39,299 bases of DNA from Escherichia phage phiHAO2-2, in the sequence record PP079212.1. One strand, written 5' to 3'. Of this stretch, positions 32,408 to 35,602 are shown piece by piece. Every line of letters begins with the position of its first letter. Position 1 is the stretch's first letter. The notes under the pieces were generated by a model, which saw nothing but the letters and a program-made list of their open reading frames with translations, was not told the DNA's origin and ran no database searches. Both the position numbers and the translations under genes were made by a program.

Positions 32408-35400
32408 ATGTCCACGATTACACAATTCCCTTCAGGAAACACTCAGTACAGGATTGAGTTCGACTACCTAGCCAGAACGTTTGTTGTTGTTACGCTGGTG
32501 AATAGCTCTAACCCTACCCTGAACCGTGTACTGGAAGTTGGTCGAGATTATCGATTCCTTAACCCAACGATGATTGAGATGTTGGTTGACCAATCAGGTT
32601 TCGACATAGTTCGTATTCACCGTCAGACTGGAACTGACTTAGTGGTAGACTTCAGGAATGGCTCAGTGTTGACAGCTAGCGACCTGACCAATTCAGAGCT
32701 TCAGGCTATCCATATTGCAGAAGAAGGTCGAGACCAAACGGTTGACTTAGCGAAGGAATATGCCGATGCTGCTGGTAGCTCTGCTGGCAACGCTAAGGAT
32801 AGCGAGGACGAAGCACGACGAATCGCTGAGAGTATCAGGGAAGCTGGTAGACTTGGCTATATAACCCGTCGCTCCTTCGAGAAAGGCTACAACATTACAA
32901 CATGGAGCGAGGTACTGCTATGGGAAGAGGATGGTGATTATTATCGCTGGGATGGTACGCTTCCAAAGAACGTTCCTGCTGGTTCAACTCCTGAAACTTC
33001 CGGTGGGATTGGATTAGGTGCGTGGGTTAGTGTCGGTGATGCTGCTTTAAGAAGTCAGATTACAAATCCTGAAGGGGCAATACTCTACCCTGAATTACAT
33101 AGAGCACGCTGGCTTGATGAAAAAGATGTTCGTGGTTGGGGTGCTAAAGGGGATGGTGTCACTGATGATACAGCAGCGTTAGCGAGAGCATTAAACGACA
33201 CACCGGTTGGACAAAAGCTTAATGGCAATGGGAAGACATATAAGGTCACATCCCTGCCTGACATTAGTCGCTTCATCAACACTCGTTTCGTTTATGAGCG
33301 CATTCCCGGACAACCTCTTTATTATGTCTCTGAAGAATTTGTTCAGGGTGAGCTGTTCAAAATAACGGACACCCCTTATTACAATGCGTGGCCTCAGGAT
33401 AAAGCGTTCGTATATGAGAATGTGATATATGCACCTTACATGGGTAGCGATCGTCATGGTGTTAGTCGTCTGCATGTATCATGGGTTAAGTCTGGTGATG
33501 ATGGTCAAACATGGTCTACTCCAGAGTGGTTAACTGATCTGCATCCAGATTACCCTACAGTGAACTATCATTGTATGAGTATGGGTGTATGTCGCAACCG
33601 TCTGTTTGCCATGATTGAAACACGTACTTTAGCCAAGAACGCATTAACCAATTGTGCATTGTGGGATCGCCCCATGTCTCGTAGCCTGCATCTTACTGGC
33701 GGTATCACTAAAGCTGCAAATCAGCCATATGCAACAATACATGTACCAGACCACGGACTATTCGTGGGTGATTTTGTTAACTTCTCTAACTCTGCGGTAA
33801 CAGGTGTATCCGGCGATATGACCGTTGCAACCGTAATAGATAAGGACAACTTCACGGTCCTTACACCAAACCAGCAGACTTCAGATTTGAATAACGCTGG
33901 AAAGAATTGGCACATGGGTACTTCTTTCCATAAGTCTCCATGGCGTAAGACAGATCTTGGTCTAATCCCTCGTGTCACAGAGGTGCATAGCTTTGCTACT
34001 ATTGATAATAATGGCTTTGTTATGGGCTATCATCAAGGTGATGTAGCTCCACGAGAAGTTGGGCTTTTCTACTTCCCTGATGCTTTCAATAGCCCATCTA
34101 ATTATGTTCGTCGTCAGATACCATCTGAGTATGAACCAGATGCGGCAGAGCCGTGCATCAAGTACTATGACGGTGTATTATACCTTATCACTCGTGGCAC
34201 TCGTGGGGATAGACTAGGTAGCTCTTTGCATCGTAGTAGAGACATAGGTCAGACTTGGGAGTCACTGAGATTTCCACATAATGTTCATCATACTACATTA
34301 CCTTTTGCTAAAGTAGGGGATGACCTTATTATGTTTGGTTCAGAACGTGCAGAAAATGAATGGGAAGCAGGTGCACCAGATGATCGTTACAAGGCATCTT
34401 ATCCTCGCACCTTCTATGCACGCTTGAATGTAAACAATTGGAATGCAGATGATATTGAATGGGTTAACATCACTGACCAGATTTATCAGGGCGGAATAGT
34501 TAACTCAGGTGTAGGCGTTGGTTCGGTAGTTGTGAAGGATAATTACATCTACTACATGTTTGGTGGAGAGGACCATTTTAACCCATGGACATATGGAGAT
34601 AACTCAGCGAAGGATCCATTCAAATCAAATGGTCATCCCTCAGATTTGTATTGCTACAAAATGAAGATTGGCCCAGACAATCGTGTTTCTAGGGATTTCA
34701 GGTATGGTGCTGTACCTAACAGAGCTGTTCCAGTGTTTTTTGATACGAATGGGATTCGCACTGTTCCTGCGCCAATGGAATTTACAGGGGATTTGGGTTT
34801 AGGTCATGTGACCATTAGAGCCAGCACCAGTAGTAACATTCGCTCTGAAGTTTTAATGGAAGGTGAATATGGGTTTATCGGGAAATCTATACCGACTGAT
34901 AACCCGGCAGGGCAGCGCCTCATATTTTGCGGGGGTGAAGGCACCAGTTCAACGACTGGCGCACAGATTACGCTTTATGGTGTAAATAACACCGACTCAA
35001 AGCGAATAGTTTACAATGGTGCTGAGCATCTATTCCAAAGTGCTGATGTTAAGCCTTATAACGATAACGTCACTGCGCTTGGCGGACCTAGCAACCGTTT
35101 CACCACTGCATACCTCGGAAGTAACCCTATTGTTACTTCTAACGGGGAGAAGAAAACAGAGCCAGTAGTTTTTGATGATGCTTTCCTTGATGCTTGGGGT
35201 GACGTTCGCTACATCATGTACCAGTGGTTAGATGCTGTTCAACTGAAAGGCAATGATGCTCGTATTCACTTCGGGGTTATTGCTCAGCAAATTCGTGATG
35301 TATTCATTGCACATGGTCTGATGGACGAAAACAGTACGAATTGTCGTTATGCTGTTCTGTGCTATGACAAGTATCCACGGATGACCGATACGGTATTTTC

Positions 35401-35602
35401 GCACAATGAAATCATTGAACACATTGACGAGGAGGGTAATGTCACCACTACGGAAGAACCTGTATACACCGAGGTGGTTATTCACGAAGAAGGTGAGGAG
35501 TGGGGTGTTCGGCCTGACGGAATTTTCTTTGCTGAAGCCGCTTATCAGAGAAGAAAACTGGAAAGAATCGAAGCCAGACTTTCTGCTCTTGAACAGAAGT
35601 AA
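32408..35602 (+). CDS. Tail spike: endosialidase (endo-N-acetylneuraminidase) with gp17-like N-terminal anchor and C-terminal intramolecular chaperone domain
   Basis: 1064 aa, the length I recall for K1F endosialidase. N-terminal ~110 aa resemble the T7 gp17 particle-binding domain. The central region has lower GC by eye. C-terminal ~150 aa resemble the auto-cleaved chaperone domain of endosialidases. Confidence 0.88.
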   Translation: MSTITQFPSGNTQYRIEFDYLARTFVVVTLVNSSNPTLNRVLEVGRDYRFLNPTMIEMLVDQSGFDIVRIHRQTGTDLVVDFRNGSVLTASDLTNSELQAIHIAEEGRDQTVDLAKEYADAAGSSAGNAKDSEDEARRIAESIREAGRLGYITRRSFEKGYNITTWSEVLLWEEDGDYYRWDGTLPKNVPAGSTPETSGGIGLGAWVSVGDAALRSQITNPEGAILYPELHRARWLDEKDVRGWGAKGDGVTDDTAALARALNDTPVGQKLNGNGKTYKVTSLPDISRFINTRFVYERIPGQPLYYVSEEFVQGELFKITDTPYYNAWPQDKAFVYENVIYAPYMGSDRHGVSRLHVSWVKSGDDGQTWSTPEWLTDLHPDYPTVNYHCMSMGVCRNRLFAMIETRTLAKNALTNCALWDRPMSRSLHLTGGITKAANQPYATIHVPDHGLFVGDFVNFSNSAVTGVSGDMTVATVIDKDNFTVLTPNQQTSDLNNAGKNWHMGTSFHKSPWRKTDLGLIPRVTEVHSFATIDNNGFVMGYHQGDVAPREVGLFYFPDAFNSPSNYVRRQIPSEYEPDAAEPCIKYYDGVLYLITRGTRGDRLGSSLHRSRDIGQTWESLRFPHNVHHTTLPFAKVGDDLIMFGSERAENEWEAGAPDDRYKASYPRTFYARLNVNNWNADDIEWVNITDQIYQGGIVNSGVGVGSVVVKDNYIYYMFGGEDHFNPWTYGDNSAKDPFKSNGHPSDLYCYKMKIGPDNRVSRDFRYGAVPNRAVPVFFDTNGIRTVPAPMEFTGDLGLGHVTIRASTSSNIRSEVLMEGEYGFIGKSIPTDNPAGQRLIFCGGEGTSSTTGAQITLYGVNNTDSKRIVYNGAEHLFQSADVKPYNDNVTALGGPSNRFTTAYLGSNPIVTSNGEKKTEPVVFDDAFLDAWGDVRYIMYQWLDAVQLKGNDARIHFGVIAQQIRDVFIAHGLMDENSTNCRYAVLCYDKYPRMTDTVFSHNEIIEHIDEEGNVTTTEEPVYTEVVIHEEGEEWGVRPDGIFFAEAAYQRRKLERIEARLSALEQK

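Follow-up and report, generated by a model that had tools for sequence, protein, structure and literature searches.

The open reading frame at 32408..35602 of the window (the whole 39,299-nucleotide stretch of Escherichia phage phiHAO2-2 DNA analyzed here, record PP079212.1) is, with a probability of about 95%, gene 17 of a K1F-like Kayfunavirus, encoding a mosaic, K1-capsule-targeting tail spike of the endoNF endosialidase type. Domain content, residue conservation, sequence identity, base composition and comparative breakpoints were each observed directly and are given in turn below, together with the alternatives on which they bear.

Gene 17, its expression signals and its genome context

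The reading frame starts with ATG on the plus strand and encodes 1064 aa, and the open reading frame listing thereby reproduced exactly the coordinates and length given in the original prediction. It is flanked by gene 16 (internal virion protein D) and gene 17.5 (holin), in synteny with K1F, KM02, phiHAO1-1 and Vec13. By similarity and collinearity, the entire window is a K1F-like Kayfunavirus genome; positions 1-25000 had their best whole-genome match in phiHAO1-1 (97.5% identity at 95% coverage) and were 95.3% identical at 94% coverage to vB_EcoP_F, and positions 28000-38600 were collinear with KM02 except within the cassette described below. The gene and its expression signals were located as follows.

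32344..32358, plus strand: phage-RNA-polymerase promoter-like motif ACTATCACTATAGGA, an exact copy beginning 1 base past the gene 16 stop codon
32398..32403, plus strand: Shine-Dalgarno AGGAGG, read from the sequence, 4 nt 5' of the ATG
32408..35602, plus strand: gene 17, endosialidase (endo-N-acetylneuraminidase) tail spike precursor, 1064 aa, assigned from identity to K1F gp17 and phiHAO1-1 gp45 and from Pfam domains

The promoter-like motif occurred 10 times in the window with 0-1 mismatch, always on the plus strand, and when up to 3 mismatches were allowed, 13 copies were found against about 1.1 expected, a count reached in none of 100 shuffles. The copy upstream of gene 17 corresponds to the phi17 promoter of T7, and this phage-RNA-polymerase promoter together with the genomic position places the gene among the gene 17 receptor-binding proteins of the T7 group (Studiervirinae). 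Scans of 32000-36300 for sigma-70 promoters and for intrinsic terminators yielded no more hits than expected from shuffling, none of the terminators lying immediately 3' of gene 17, and RNA folding of the 3' intergenic region (35595-35735) was no better than that of shuffles (z = -0.10). Because neither the terminator scan nor the folding surpassed shuffles, we do not claim a terminator after gene 17; one is annotated there in the old K1F record M63657. Antisense open reading frames were also seen within gene 17, such as one of 131 aa at 35228-35623, and were dismissed as probable by-products of a long AT-rich reading frame. Outside gene 17, an apparent frameshift was noted at about 28730 in gene 16 of the window.

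Domain organization and conserved residues

Every endoNF domain is present in the product, from the anchor through the TSP-N domain, the N-terminal extension, the propeller with its inserted barrel and the stalk to the S74 chaperone.

32408..32752, plus strand: aa 1-115, T7 gp17-like virion-attachment (anchor) domain, from PF03906, T7 gp17 structures and Studiervirinae fibres
32870..33040, plus strand: aa 155-211, TSP1/gp66-type tail spike N-terminal domain (PF18668, E=1.8e-19), within the genus-conserved N-terminal module
33143..33343, plus strand: aa 246-312, endosialidase N-terminal extension (PF12218, E=2.1e-37), where the crystallized endoNF fragment begins
33344..34669, plus strand: aa 313-754, six-bladed beta-propeller catalytic domain (PF12217, E=4.3e-221)
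33677..33925, plus strand: aa 424-506, beta-barrel (polysialic-acid-binding) inserted in the propeller (PF12195, E=2.3e-47), with R440P relative to K1F
34676..35137, plus strand: aa 757-910, stalk (tail spike) domain of mature endoNF (PF12219, E=2.3e-79), aligning to the end of 1v0e/3gvl
35138..35599, plus strand: aa 911-1064, C-terminal intramolecular chaperone (Peptidase_S74), from PF13884 on aa 914-971 and 3gw6 on aa 790-1064

The T7 gp17-like N-terminal anchor that had been proposed was found in a Pfam profile search (PF03906 on aa 10-115, E=1.3e-15) and as an N-terminal tail-attachment region to which T7 gp17 aligned over aa 6-113 with about 40% identity; the T7 gp17 structures 7boz and 8dsp aligned to aa 6-116, and many Studiervirinae fibres aligned to aa 1-113. 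The C-terminal domain of the same proposal was present as Peptidase_S74 at aa 914-971 and in the alignment of PDB 3gw6, the endoNF CTD construct, to aa 790-1064, and the profile check that had been suggested for a sialidase beta-propeller detected one (PF12217, E=4e-221). Further alignments comprised the CBA120/G7C-type spikes 4oj5, 5w6h and 6nw9, to about aa 148-221/265, and PDB 9vvr_A, an 843-aa non-endosialidase spike that was near-identical across aa 1-245. Over residues 246-910, identity to the endoNF structures 1v0e and 3gvl was about 98%, and solved structures at 95-98% identity span aa 1-264 (9vvr), 246-910 (1v0e, 3gvl) and 790-1064 (3gw6).

In a residue check, H350, R549, E581, R596 and R647, which have been named critical in endosialidase (PMC12632334), were all kept at their K1F positions, and K585, Q330, D331, H527, S528 and N699 were likewise conserved. 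So was the Ser/Lys dyad of the cleavage site (S911 and K916), and the K1F record annotates the mature peptide gp17-CTD from aa 911. Having the propeller, inserted barrel, catalytic residues, stalk and S74 chaperone with its dyad, the protein is of the endoNF type (GH58). Trimerization and autoproteolytic release of the CTD are predicted from the conserved dyad and the near-identity to 3gw6.

Comparison with the spikes of K1F and phiHAO1-1

Gene 17 is a near-identical copy of the well-studied K1F tail spike. K1F gp17 (endoNF; AM084414 CAJ29390, DQ111067; PDB 1v0e, 3gvl, 3gw6) shares 97.5% aa and 97.7% nt identity with it, has 1064 aa too, and shows the identical domain order and the identical place between gene 16 and gene 17.5. 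The two differ at 27 aa and 75 nt, with no difference before aa 95 or after aa 1006, which bears out the match in length and end sequences to the K1F endosialidase on which the initial assignment had relied. Among the substitutions are R440P, S522R, S580A, D741N and D872A, none lies at a residue named catalytic, and all catalytic and cleavage residues are unchanged. From the 97.5% identity to a characterized enzyme, the gene 17 product is predicted to have endosialidase activity. The spike of phiHAO1-1 (gp45; PP079211, host APEC E13010) was 99.8% identical in nt and 99.6% in aa, with 6 nt and 4 aa differences (A37T, R239K, Y624H and A899T, from phiHAO1-1 to the window), and the remaining genome of that phage is more diverged from the window than is the spike.

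Mosaic boundaries of gene 17

Breakpoints were defined against KM02, ST53, Vec13, AN24P4, IME207, YX22 and K1-5, which yielded two further features.

32931..33052, plus strand: shared junction segment, aa ~175-216, where Kayfunavirus backbone and cross-family cassette homologies overlap; likely recombination joint
35603..35648, plus strand: 3' flank moving with the cassette; IME207/YX22 homology stops at 35614 and the backbone resumes at ~35636-35649

Homology to sister Kayfunaviruses was lost at ~33040-33173 and came back at ~35636-35649, with backbone collinearity reaching 33052 in KM02 and 33040 in ST53 and resuming at 35636 in Vec13 and 35649 in KM02. The non-endosialidase Kayfunavirus spikes (KM02, ST53, Vec13, AN24P4 and 9vvr_A) have the gene 16-17-17.5 backbone in common with the window and match the N-terminal ~212-256 aa at 93-96% nt identity, whereas their receptor-binding or enzymatic part is wholly different, the listed hosts being E. 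coli K-12 and Salmonella Typhi. An N-terminal module of ~110 aa had been proposed; its gp17-like anchor stands, but its size does not, the genus-conserved module comprising ~212-256 aa.

Conversely, IME207 gp71 (Shuimuvirus, a siphovirus) shares 32931-35614 at 95.2% nt identity while its flanks are unrelated, and the YX22 tail spike (an Ackermannviridae myovirus) shares 32942-35614 at 80.9% nt identity. More distant endosialidase homologues are phi92 endoN92 (PDB 4hiz) and that of the P22-like prophage CUS-3, and in each of IME207, YX22, phi92 and CUS-3 the N-terminal attachment module is a different one and the genome backbone is unrelated. The K1E/K1-5 endosialidase (endoNE, gp47; Vectrevirus, SP6-like) showed DNA homology only over aa 291-911, at ~83% identity and at ~91% in the propeller core (gene nt 901-2283); this homology stops exactly at 35139, and none to the CTD was detectable in DNA. 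The K1E/K1-5 enzyme has the same substrate as endoNF, lacks a T7 gp17-like anchor, its attachment relying on a short N-terminal peptide together with an adapter protein (PMC6872550).

As delimited by these comparisons, the exchangeable cassette starts at ~aa 175-256 and takes in the CTD together with 12-46 nt of 3' flank. Within the junction segment, 112-118 nt also match two other YX22 tail spike genes at 75-78% identity, and about 20 of 60 rows spread among the matches listed end at gene nt 632-655. We tentatively propose, at somewhat less than even odds, that 32931-33052 is a conserved joint for exchange of complete depolymerase-plus-chaperone cassettes among Kayfunavirus, Shuimuvirus and Ackermannviridae, the present allele, whose 27 differences from K1F cluster in part in the beta-barrel and stalk, being one with naturally retuned K1-strain specificity. 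The mosaic make-up that had been proposed for gene 17 is real, and the phage comparison shows it more sharply than does GC; the breakpoints also directly support the horizontal acquisition of the catalytic module, in agreement with the mosaic, horizontal origin already published for K1F (Stummeyer 2006, as summarized in PMC6966330 and PMC6872550).

Base composition

The GC content of gene 17 was 0.451 versus 0.501 in the rest of the window, and was 0.446 in 32950-35100, originally described as an AT-rich central region. Windows of 2151 nt with GC at or below 0.446 numbered 988 of 37149, all of them starting at 32858-33931, inside gene 17. With a GC3 of 0.383, compared to 0.555 ± 0.042 in the 31 other genes, gene 17 was the lowest of the genome, about 4 gene-level SDs below the mean (binomial z = -11); as GC3 was low and both GC1 and GC2 were ordinary, the low GC is a synonymous signal. 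The suggested check for uniform GC thus found the gene not to be genome-typical, and AT-richness was confirmed, but not its end at 35100: the whole gene is low, including the CTD (GC3 0.409, no difference from the catalytic part, p=0.40), the anchor is also somewhat low (GC3 0.47), and by cumulative deviation the low-GC tract runs over ~32244-36545. Heterogeneity of GC3 within the gene was weak, the best split being aa 1-174 versus the rest (p=0.011, uncorrected, chi-square at domain boundaries). A single GC3 change-point was rejected as module boundary, its maximum-likelihood position at codon 95 having too broad a support interval (codons 4-191). Composition by itself resolves an internal module boundary only weakly.

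Unrelated spikes at the gene 17 locus were GC3-poor relative to their genomes (ST53, 0.388 versus 0.56; KM02, 0.453 versus 0.535), as were three other YX22 spike genes (0.32-0.35 versus 0.52), and the endosialidase was GC3-poor in all five phage backgrounds examined. Candidates for a donor-like background (K1E-like PhiNW-E1, IME207, YX22 and Kagunavirus LF7074P1) were rejected, the GC3 of each spike being below that of the rest of its genome. Low GC3 is general to spike genes at the locus and no fingerprint of the endosialidase module, and since the unrelated spikes there are GC3-poor too, AT-richness by itself speaks only weakly for that module having been acquired.

The low GC3 could instead stem from a selective or mutational regime common to genes for spikes and fibres (codons chosen so that beta-rich trimers are translated slowly, for example, or another mode of expression), and not from an AT-richer donor, in which case the module may be old in the lineage. 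Such a regime would suit the GC3-poor spikes of ST53 and KM02, the four YX22 tail spike genes (endosialidase copy included) and the five endosialidase backgrounds, none of which resembles an equilibrated donor, as well as the lowered GC3 of an anchor inherited vertically within the genus (0.47 versus 0.555) and the K1F-type spikes that, at 95-99.8% identity across many isolates, track the backbone. However, the breakpoints show that the cassette moved between families whatever causes its composition, its nt identity to the siphovirus copy is 95% with flanks that are unrelated, and a mobile cassette pool shuttling among phages of differing GC would give the same pattern; we regard the regime explanation as rather unlikely.

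Predicted host and substrate specificity

Among the hosts recorded for phages whose spike has at least 95% identity are E. coli O18ac:K1:H7, 'K1 LU_100', UTI89 and DSM 30083, and IMT5155 is recorded for the 81%-identical YX22 copy. We take UTI89, DSM 30083 and IMT5155 to be K1 strains. The spike of K1F is essential and cleaves alpha-2,8-polysialic acid (PMC12632334). A K1-encapsulated E. coli host is predicted because the gene 17 spike would depolymerize the alpha-2,8-polysialic acid of the K1 capsule, and the original prediction of such a host finds support in these recorded K1 hosts and in the K1F literature; for K1F, a K1-capsule host has, like the acquisition of the module, been published before (Stummeyer 2006). 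Discordant hosts, non-K1 or not E. coli, are listed in a few database records with spikes at least 97% identical, LNA3 on K-12 MG1655 and vB_Aba_01KA on Acinetobacter, and Klebsiella is listed for IME207, with its 95% identical cassette; should these host entries hold, the phages would depend on the capsule less than absolutely.

It could also be considered that the endosialidase fold was kept with substrate or host specificity shifted, for example to O-acetylated K1, to the K92 alpha-2,8/2,9 polymer or to a subset of K1 strains, as the 27 substitutions include R440P in the beta-barrel, S580A adjoining the catalytic Glu E581, D741N near the propeller loops behind the barrel site, and I838L, A859V, R865K and D872A in the stalk, and beta-barrel loops and stalk have been reported as 'tuning' regions for host discrimination and processivity (PMC12632334). 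A K1 host would on that reading be too simple a description. We consider the reading very improbable, since the named catalytic and structural-network residues are all unchanged, the substitutions are mostly conservative, the dN/dS of gene 17 versus K1F was 0.16, indicating purifying selection, and only 4 aa separate the allele from its counterpart in phiHAO1-1, a phage obtained from an APEC strain as host. That gene 17 is a non-functional or decaying copy with another receptor-binding protein in use, for which one might point to the apparent gene 16 frameshift as a sign of sequence errors or defects in the record, is hardly credible given its intact 1064-codon reading frame with its own promoter and strong ribosome-binding site, the same dN/dS of 0.16, and a T7-like gene order in the window that showed no further gene for a tail fibre or spike.

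Proposed mode of action

For the endoNF-type spike, we infer enzymatic activity, autocleavage and host range from the near-identity to the characterized K1F protein; the recombination mechanism is an inference as well. The precursor would trimerize with the aid of its C-terminal S74 chaperone domain, which would then cleave itself off before S911 by means of the S911/K916 dyad, and the T7 gp17-like N-terminal module would attach the mature trimer to the tail. Alpha-2,8-polysialic acid would be bound and depolymerized by the propeller active site (E581, R596 and R647, with H350 and R549) and the barrel and stalk binding sites, allowing the virion to tunnel through the E. coli K1 capsule. As for its origin, a genus-conserved 5' module (~aa 1-212/256) is joined to an endosialidase-plus-chaperone cassette that also circulates outside the genus, a siphovirus and an Ackermannviridae myovirus having copies 81-95% identical in DNA, and whose propeller core is common to K1E/K1-5, and the joint in the conserved TSP-N segment would be a plausible substrate for homologous recombination. 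The low GC3 common to receptor-binding cassettes at this locus would fit the life of a mobile module, without being diagnostic of a particular donor.

Significance

Published work already covers the enzyme with its structure and chaperone, the modular origin and even deep mutational scanning, and the finding is correct and ordinary. It makes small additions only, namely the precise DNA-level boundaries of the cassette and the generality of low GC3 among spike genes at the locus. Modular exchange of receptor-binding proteins is likewise published in general, and a defined cross-family endosialidase joint would, if true, be a modest refinement. The call has practical use in identifying the window as a K1F-group phage directed at the K1 capsule, which is of interest for treating infections by neonatal-meningitis, UPEC and APEC strains of type K1 and for obtaining a capsule depolymerase.

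Gene 17 encodes a K1F-type endosialidase tail spike

The reading frame originally predicted for the tail spike proved exact (32408–35602, + strand, ATG start codon, 1064 aa) and lies between gene 16 on one side and the holin gene 17.5 on the other. As analyzed with Pfam, its product carries the K1F-type endosialidase domain set, complete and correctly ordered, including the sialidase beta-propeller.

Domains of the gene 17 product (aa numbered from its ATG)
aa 10–115: Phage_T7_tail, anchor (PF03906, E=1.3e-15)
aa 155–211: Tail_spike_N, TSP1/gp66 type (PF18668, E=1.8e-19)
aa 246–312: End_N_terminal (PF12218, E=2.1e-37)
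aa 313–754: End_beta_propel (PF12217, E=4.3e-221)
aa 424–506: End_beta_barrel, inserted (PF12195, E=2.3e-47)
aa 757–910: End_tail_spike, stalk (PF12219, E=2.3e-79)
aa 914–971: Peptidase_S74, chaperone (PF13884, E=2.4e-09)

T7 gp17 aligned over aa 6–113, whereby the proposed T7 gp17-like anchor of ~110 aa holds as a T7-homologous domain, but as a genus-conserved unit it is about twice that length. The recent tail spike structure 9vvr_A (843 aa) matches aa 1–264; aa 246–910 are near-identical to the structures 1v0e, 3gvl, 3gvj and 3gvk of the K1F endosialidase (endoNF), and aa 790–1064 to the stalk-plus-chaperone structure 3gw6, which together with the Peptidase_S74 match bears out the predicted C-terminal domain. 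Compared with K1F gp17, residues H350, R549, E581, R596 and R647 and the S911/K916 maturation dyad were all kept, as were Q330, D331, H527, S528, K585 and N699, which deep mutational scanning of K1F gp17 had singled out (PMC12632334). In the annotation of the K1F record, aa 2–910 constitute the mature spike and aa 911–1064 the released chaperone.

The proposed resemblance to the K1F endosialidase was also correct, with 97.7% nt identity to K1F gene 17, 75 nt and 27 aa differences and zero indels, and about two dozen other K1F-like phages carry the gene at 95–98% nt identity. Compared with gp45 of phiHAO1-1 (99.8% nt identity; 6 nt and 4 aa differences), gene 17 of phiHAO2-2 is simply one more allele, separated by 4 aa from a sequence already deposited. 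With dN/dS against K1F (Nei–Gojobori) at 0.16 for the whole gene and 0.14–0.24 in each of three segments, the gene is under purifying selection.

Comparison with other phages delimits the cassette

The sharp evidence for mosaicism lies in comparison with other phages. Kayfunaviruses with other spikes were collinear with the window at 93–96% across gene 16 and the 5′ part of gene 17, until homology was lost within aa 212–256 (ST53 at 33040, KM02 at 33052, AN24P4 at 33166 and Vec13 at 33173). Such ends fell at gene nt 632–655 in ~20 records and at nt 759 in two, in a spread sample drawn from the 240 matching records. On the 3′ side, backbone homology was back at 35636–35649, i.e. 34–47 nt past the gene 17 stop codon. 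For AN24P4, having a different central spike domain, 93% nt homology was regained at 35389, inside the chaperone domain (aa ~995), and the last ~70 aa of the S74 chaperone (35389–35602) thus act as an exchangeable unit of their own.

The cassette, comprising the endosialidase and the C-terminal chaperone part, also occurs in unrelated genomes outside Kayfunavirus. The siphovirus IME207 (Shuimuvirus; its coordinates 20001–22684) has 32931–35614 in common with the window at 95.2% nt identity and YX22 (Ackermannviridae) has 32942–35614 at 80.9%, while homology at 79–83% starts from gene nt 717 in UE-M3 (74 kb) and from nt 847 in IME392 (116 kb). With K1E/K1-5 only aa 291–911 are common (83%), at ~91% identity in the propeller core (gene nt 901–2283), and DNA homology ends at the chaperone cleavage site, 35139. 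Finding the cassette in IME207 and YX22, with Kayfunavirus backbone lost and regained around it in the window, supports the proposed horizontal acquisition of the catalytic module.

Backbone and cross-family cassette overlap by ~120 nt (32931–33052, aa ~175–216) within the TSP1/gp66-type N-terminal domain, plausibly a homologous-recombination joint. This segment also matches two other YX22 spike genes at 75–78%. A ~115-nt junction segment (window 32942–33059) was found in three tail spike genes of YX22 (OR776998; 17872–17987, 19975–20090 and 26075–26186; 75–81%), pointing to a module joint that different spikes and phage families have in common.

Base composition of gene 17

The GC content of gene 17 was 0.451, compared with 0.501 in the remainder of the window. 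For 32950–35100, the interval originally called AT-rich, it was 0.446, and the 988 of 37149 windows of 2151 nt with GC at or below that value all started at 32858–33931; at the 2-kb scale, the genome is therefore at its most AT-rich here. At 1-kb scale, the left-end early region (1–2000) was almost as low (~0.45 per kb), and a ~450-nt AT-rich tract near the right end (38400–38850) had GC of 0.42–0.44.

This AT-richness is a synonymous signal at third codon positions and is not amino-acid driven. GC3 was 0.383, not genome-typical when compared with a length-weighted mean of 0.555 (SD 0.042) for 31 other genes, the next-lowest being 0.468; GC1 (0.545 vs 0.578) and GC2 (0.427 vs 0.396) were unremarkable. 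The AT-richness of the interval was thus real, but its limits had to be corrected, as low GC runs past 35100 into the chaperone domain, with GC3 of 0.409 indistinguishable from that of the catalytic part (p=0.40). Position 32950 happens to fall in the 32931–33052 joint, and 35100 is near the catalytic/chaperone boundary at 35137/35138 but marks no compositional boundary. The cumulative GC-deviation curve turned at ~32244 and ~36545. Within gene 17, heterogeneity was weak, with GC3 of 0.471 for aa 1–174 and 0.365 for the remaining residues (p=0.011 without correction for choice of cut), and a module boundary sought from composition alone was imprecise, the support interval of a likelihood change-point in GC3 being codons 4–191.

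The endosialidase is not alone in its low GC3. Unrelated spikes of sister Kayfunaviruses had GC3 of 0.388 vs 0.56 (ST53) and 0.453 vs 0.535 (KM02), and the tail spike genes of YX22 were GC3-poor in four cases of four (0.32–0.41 vs 0.52). No compositional donor was found among the four backgrounds examined, with endosialidase GC3 below that of the genome in each.

GC3 of the endosialidase gene and of other ORFs
IME207: 0.389; 0.488
PhiNW-E1 (K1E-like): 0.323; 0.445
YX22: 0.409; 0.522
LF7074P1 (Kagunavirus): 0.48; 0.571

Composition therefore says "receptor-binding cassette" and identifies no donor.

Expression signals and genome context

Signals preceding gene 17
32344–32358, + strand: exact copy of the motif ACTATCACTATAGGA, its first base directly following the gene 16 stop codon
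32398–32403, + strand: ribosome-binding site AGGAGG ahead of the ATG, read from the sequence

Searching the window for ACTATCACTATAGGA/G with 0–1 mismatch gave 10 copies, mostly intergenic and all on the + strand (1825, 5358, 7054, 8034, 16835, 19656, 20660, 25067, 32344 and 38601). Allowing up to three mismatches in ACTATCACTATAGGA, 13 matches were found against ~1 expected by chance, a number reached in none of the shuffles. From this excess and strand bias, the motif is the K1F-type phage-RNA-polymerase promoter core of this T7-group genome, with one copy belonging to gene 17. Scans for sigma-70 promoters and terminators around gene 17, and RNA folding of the 3′ intergenic region after it, gave results no better than shuffled controls.

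The first 25 kb were 97.5% identical to phiHAO1-1 across 95% of their length and 93–95.5% identical to other K1F-like Kayfunavirus genomes, and 28–38.6 kb were collinear with KM02, the spike cassette excepted. The window represents a K1F-like genome, complete or nearly so, with 32408–35602 as its gene 17. Positions 1–600 and 38700–39299 have no exact repeat of at least 12 nt in common. A T7-group genome should carry a direct terminal repeat, which record PP079212.1 accordingly either lacks or contains as a single copy.

An apparent 1-nt insertion at ~28730 splits gene 16, which encodes internal virion protein D and its lytic transglycosylase N-terminus, into 28455–28751 and 28621–32343. The frame from the ATG at 28455 ends after 98 aa (stop codon 28749–28751), with the other 1240 aa in a different frame, whereas gp16 of K1F, KM02 and ST53 is unbroken at 1295 aa. 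Over 28600–28860, the window is 1 nt longer than any of the top relatives. A sequencing or assembly indel is the probable cause of the break; failing that, an essential gene carries a genuine frameshift.

Host prediction and relation to published work

Recorded hosts of phages with at least 95% identical spikes include E. coli O18ac:K1:H7 ColV+, "K1 LU_100", UTI89, DSM 30083 and APEC strains; UTI89, DSM 30083 and IMT5155 we take to be K1 strains. Some labels among the listed records were discordant and are caveats on the K1-host prediction. The K1F-like records PV615262 and MZ311862 have odd hosts ("Acinetobacter phage" vB_Aba_01KA, and LNA3 with K-12 MG1655), and IME207 (Salmonella phage, NC_031924) lists Klebsiella pneumoniae despite its 95.2% identical cassette. 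Such labels, odd for a polysialic-acid depolymerase, may be mislabels or reflect wider host use.

In the K1F literature, the spike is described as indispensable and as specific in cleaving K1 capsular alpha-2,8 polysialic acid; infection across K1 strains is reported not to be determined by capsule alone (PMC12632334). According to the summary of Stummeyer et al. (2006) in PMC6966330, K1-specific phages had different progenitors, each of which got its endosialidase by horizontal transfer. A T7 gp17-like N-terminal domain joined to an endosialidase as K1-specific depolymerase is already in the K1F literature, as are all other elements of the interpretation. The original observation is hence confirmed with corrected boundaries, and its interpretation, a K1 host and an acquired endosialidase module, is supported, for the host by both the recorded K1 hosts and the K1F literature.
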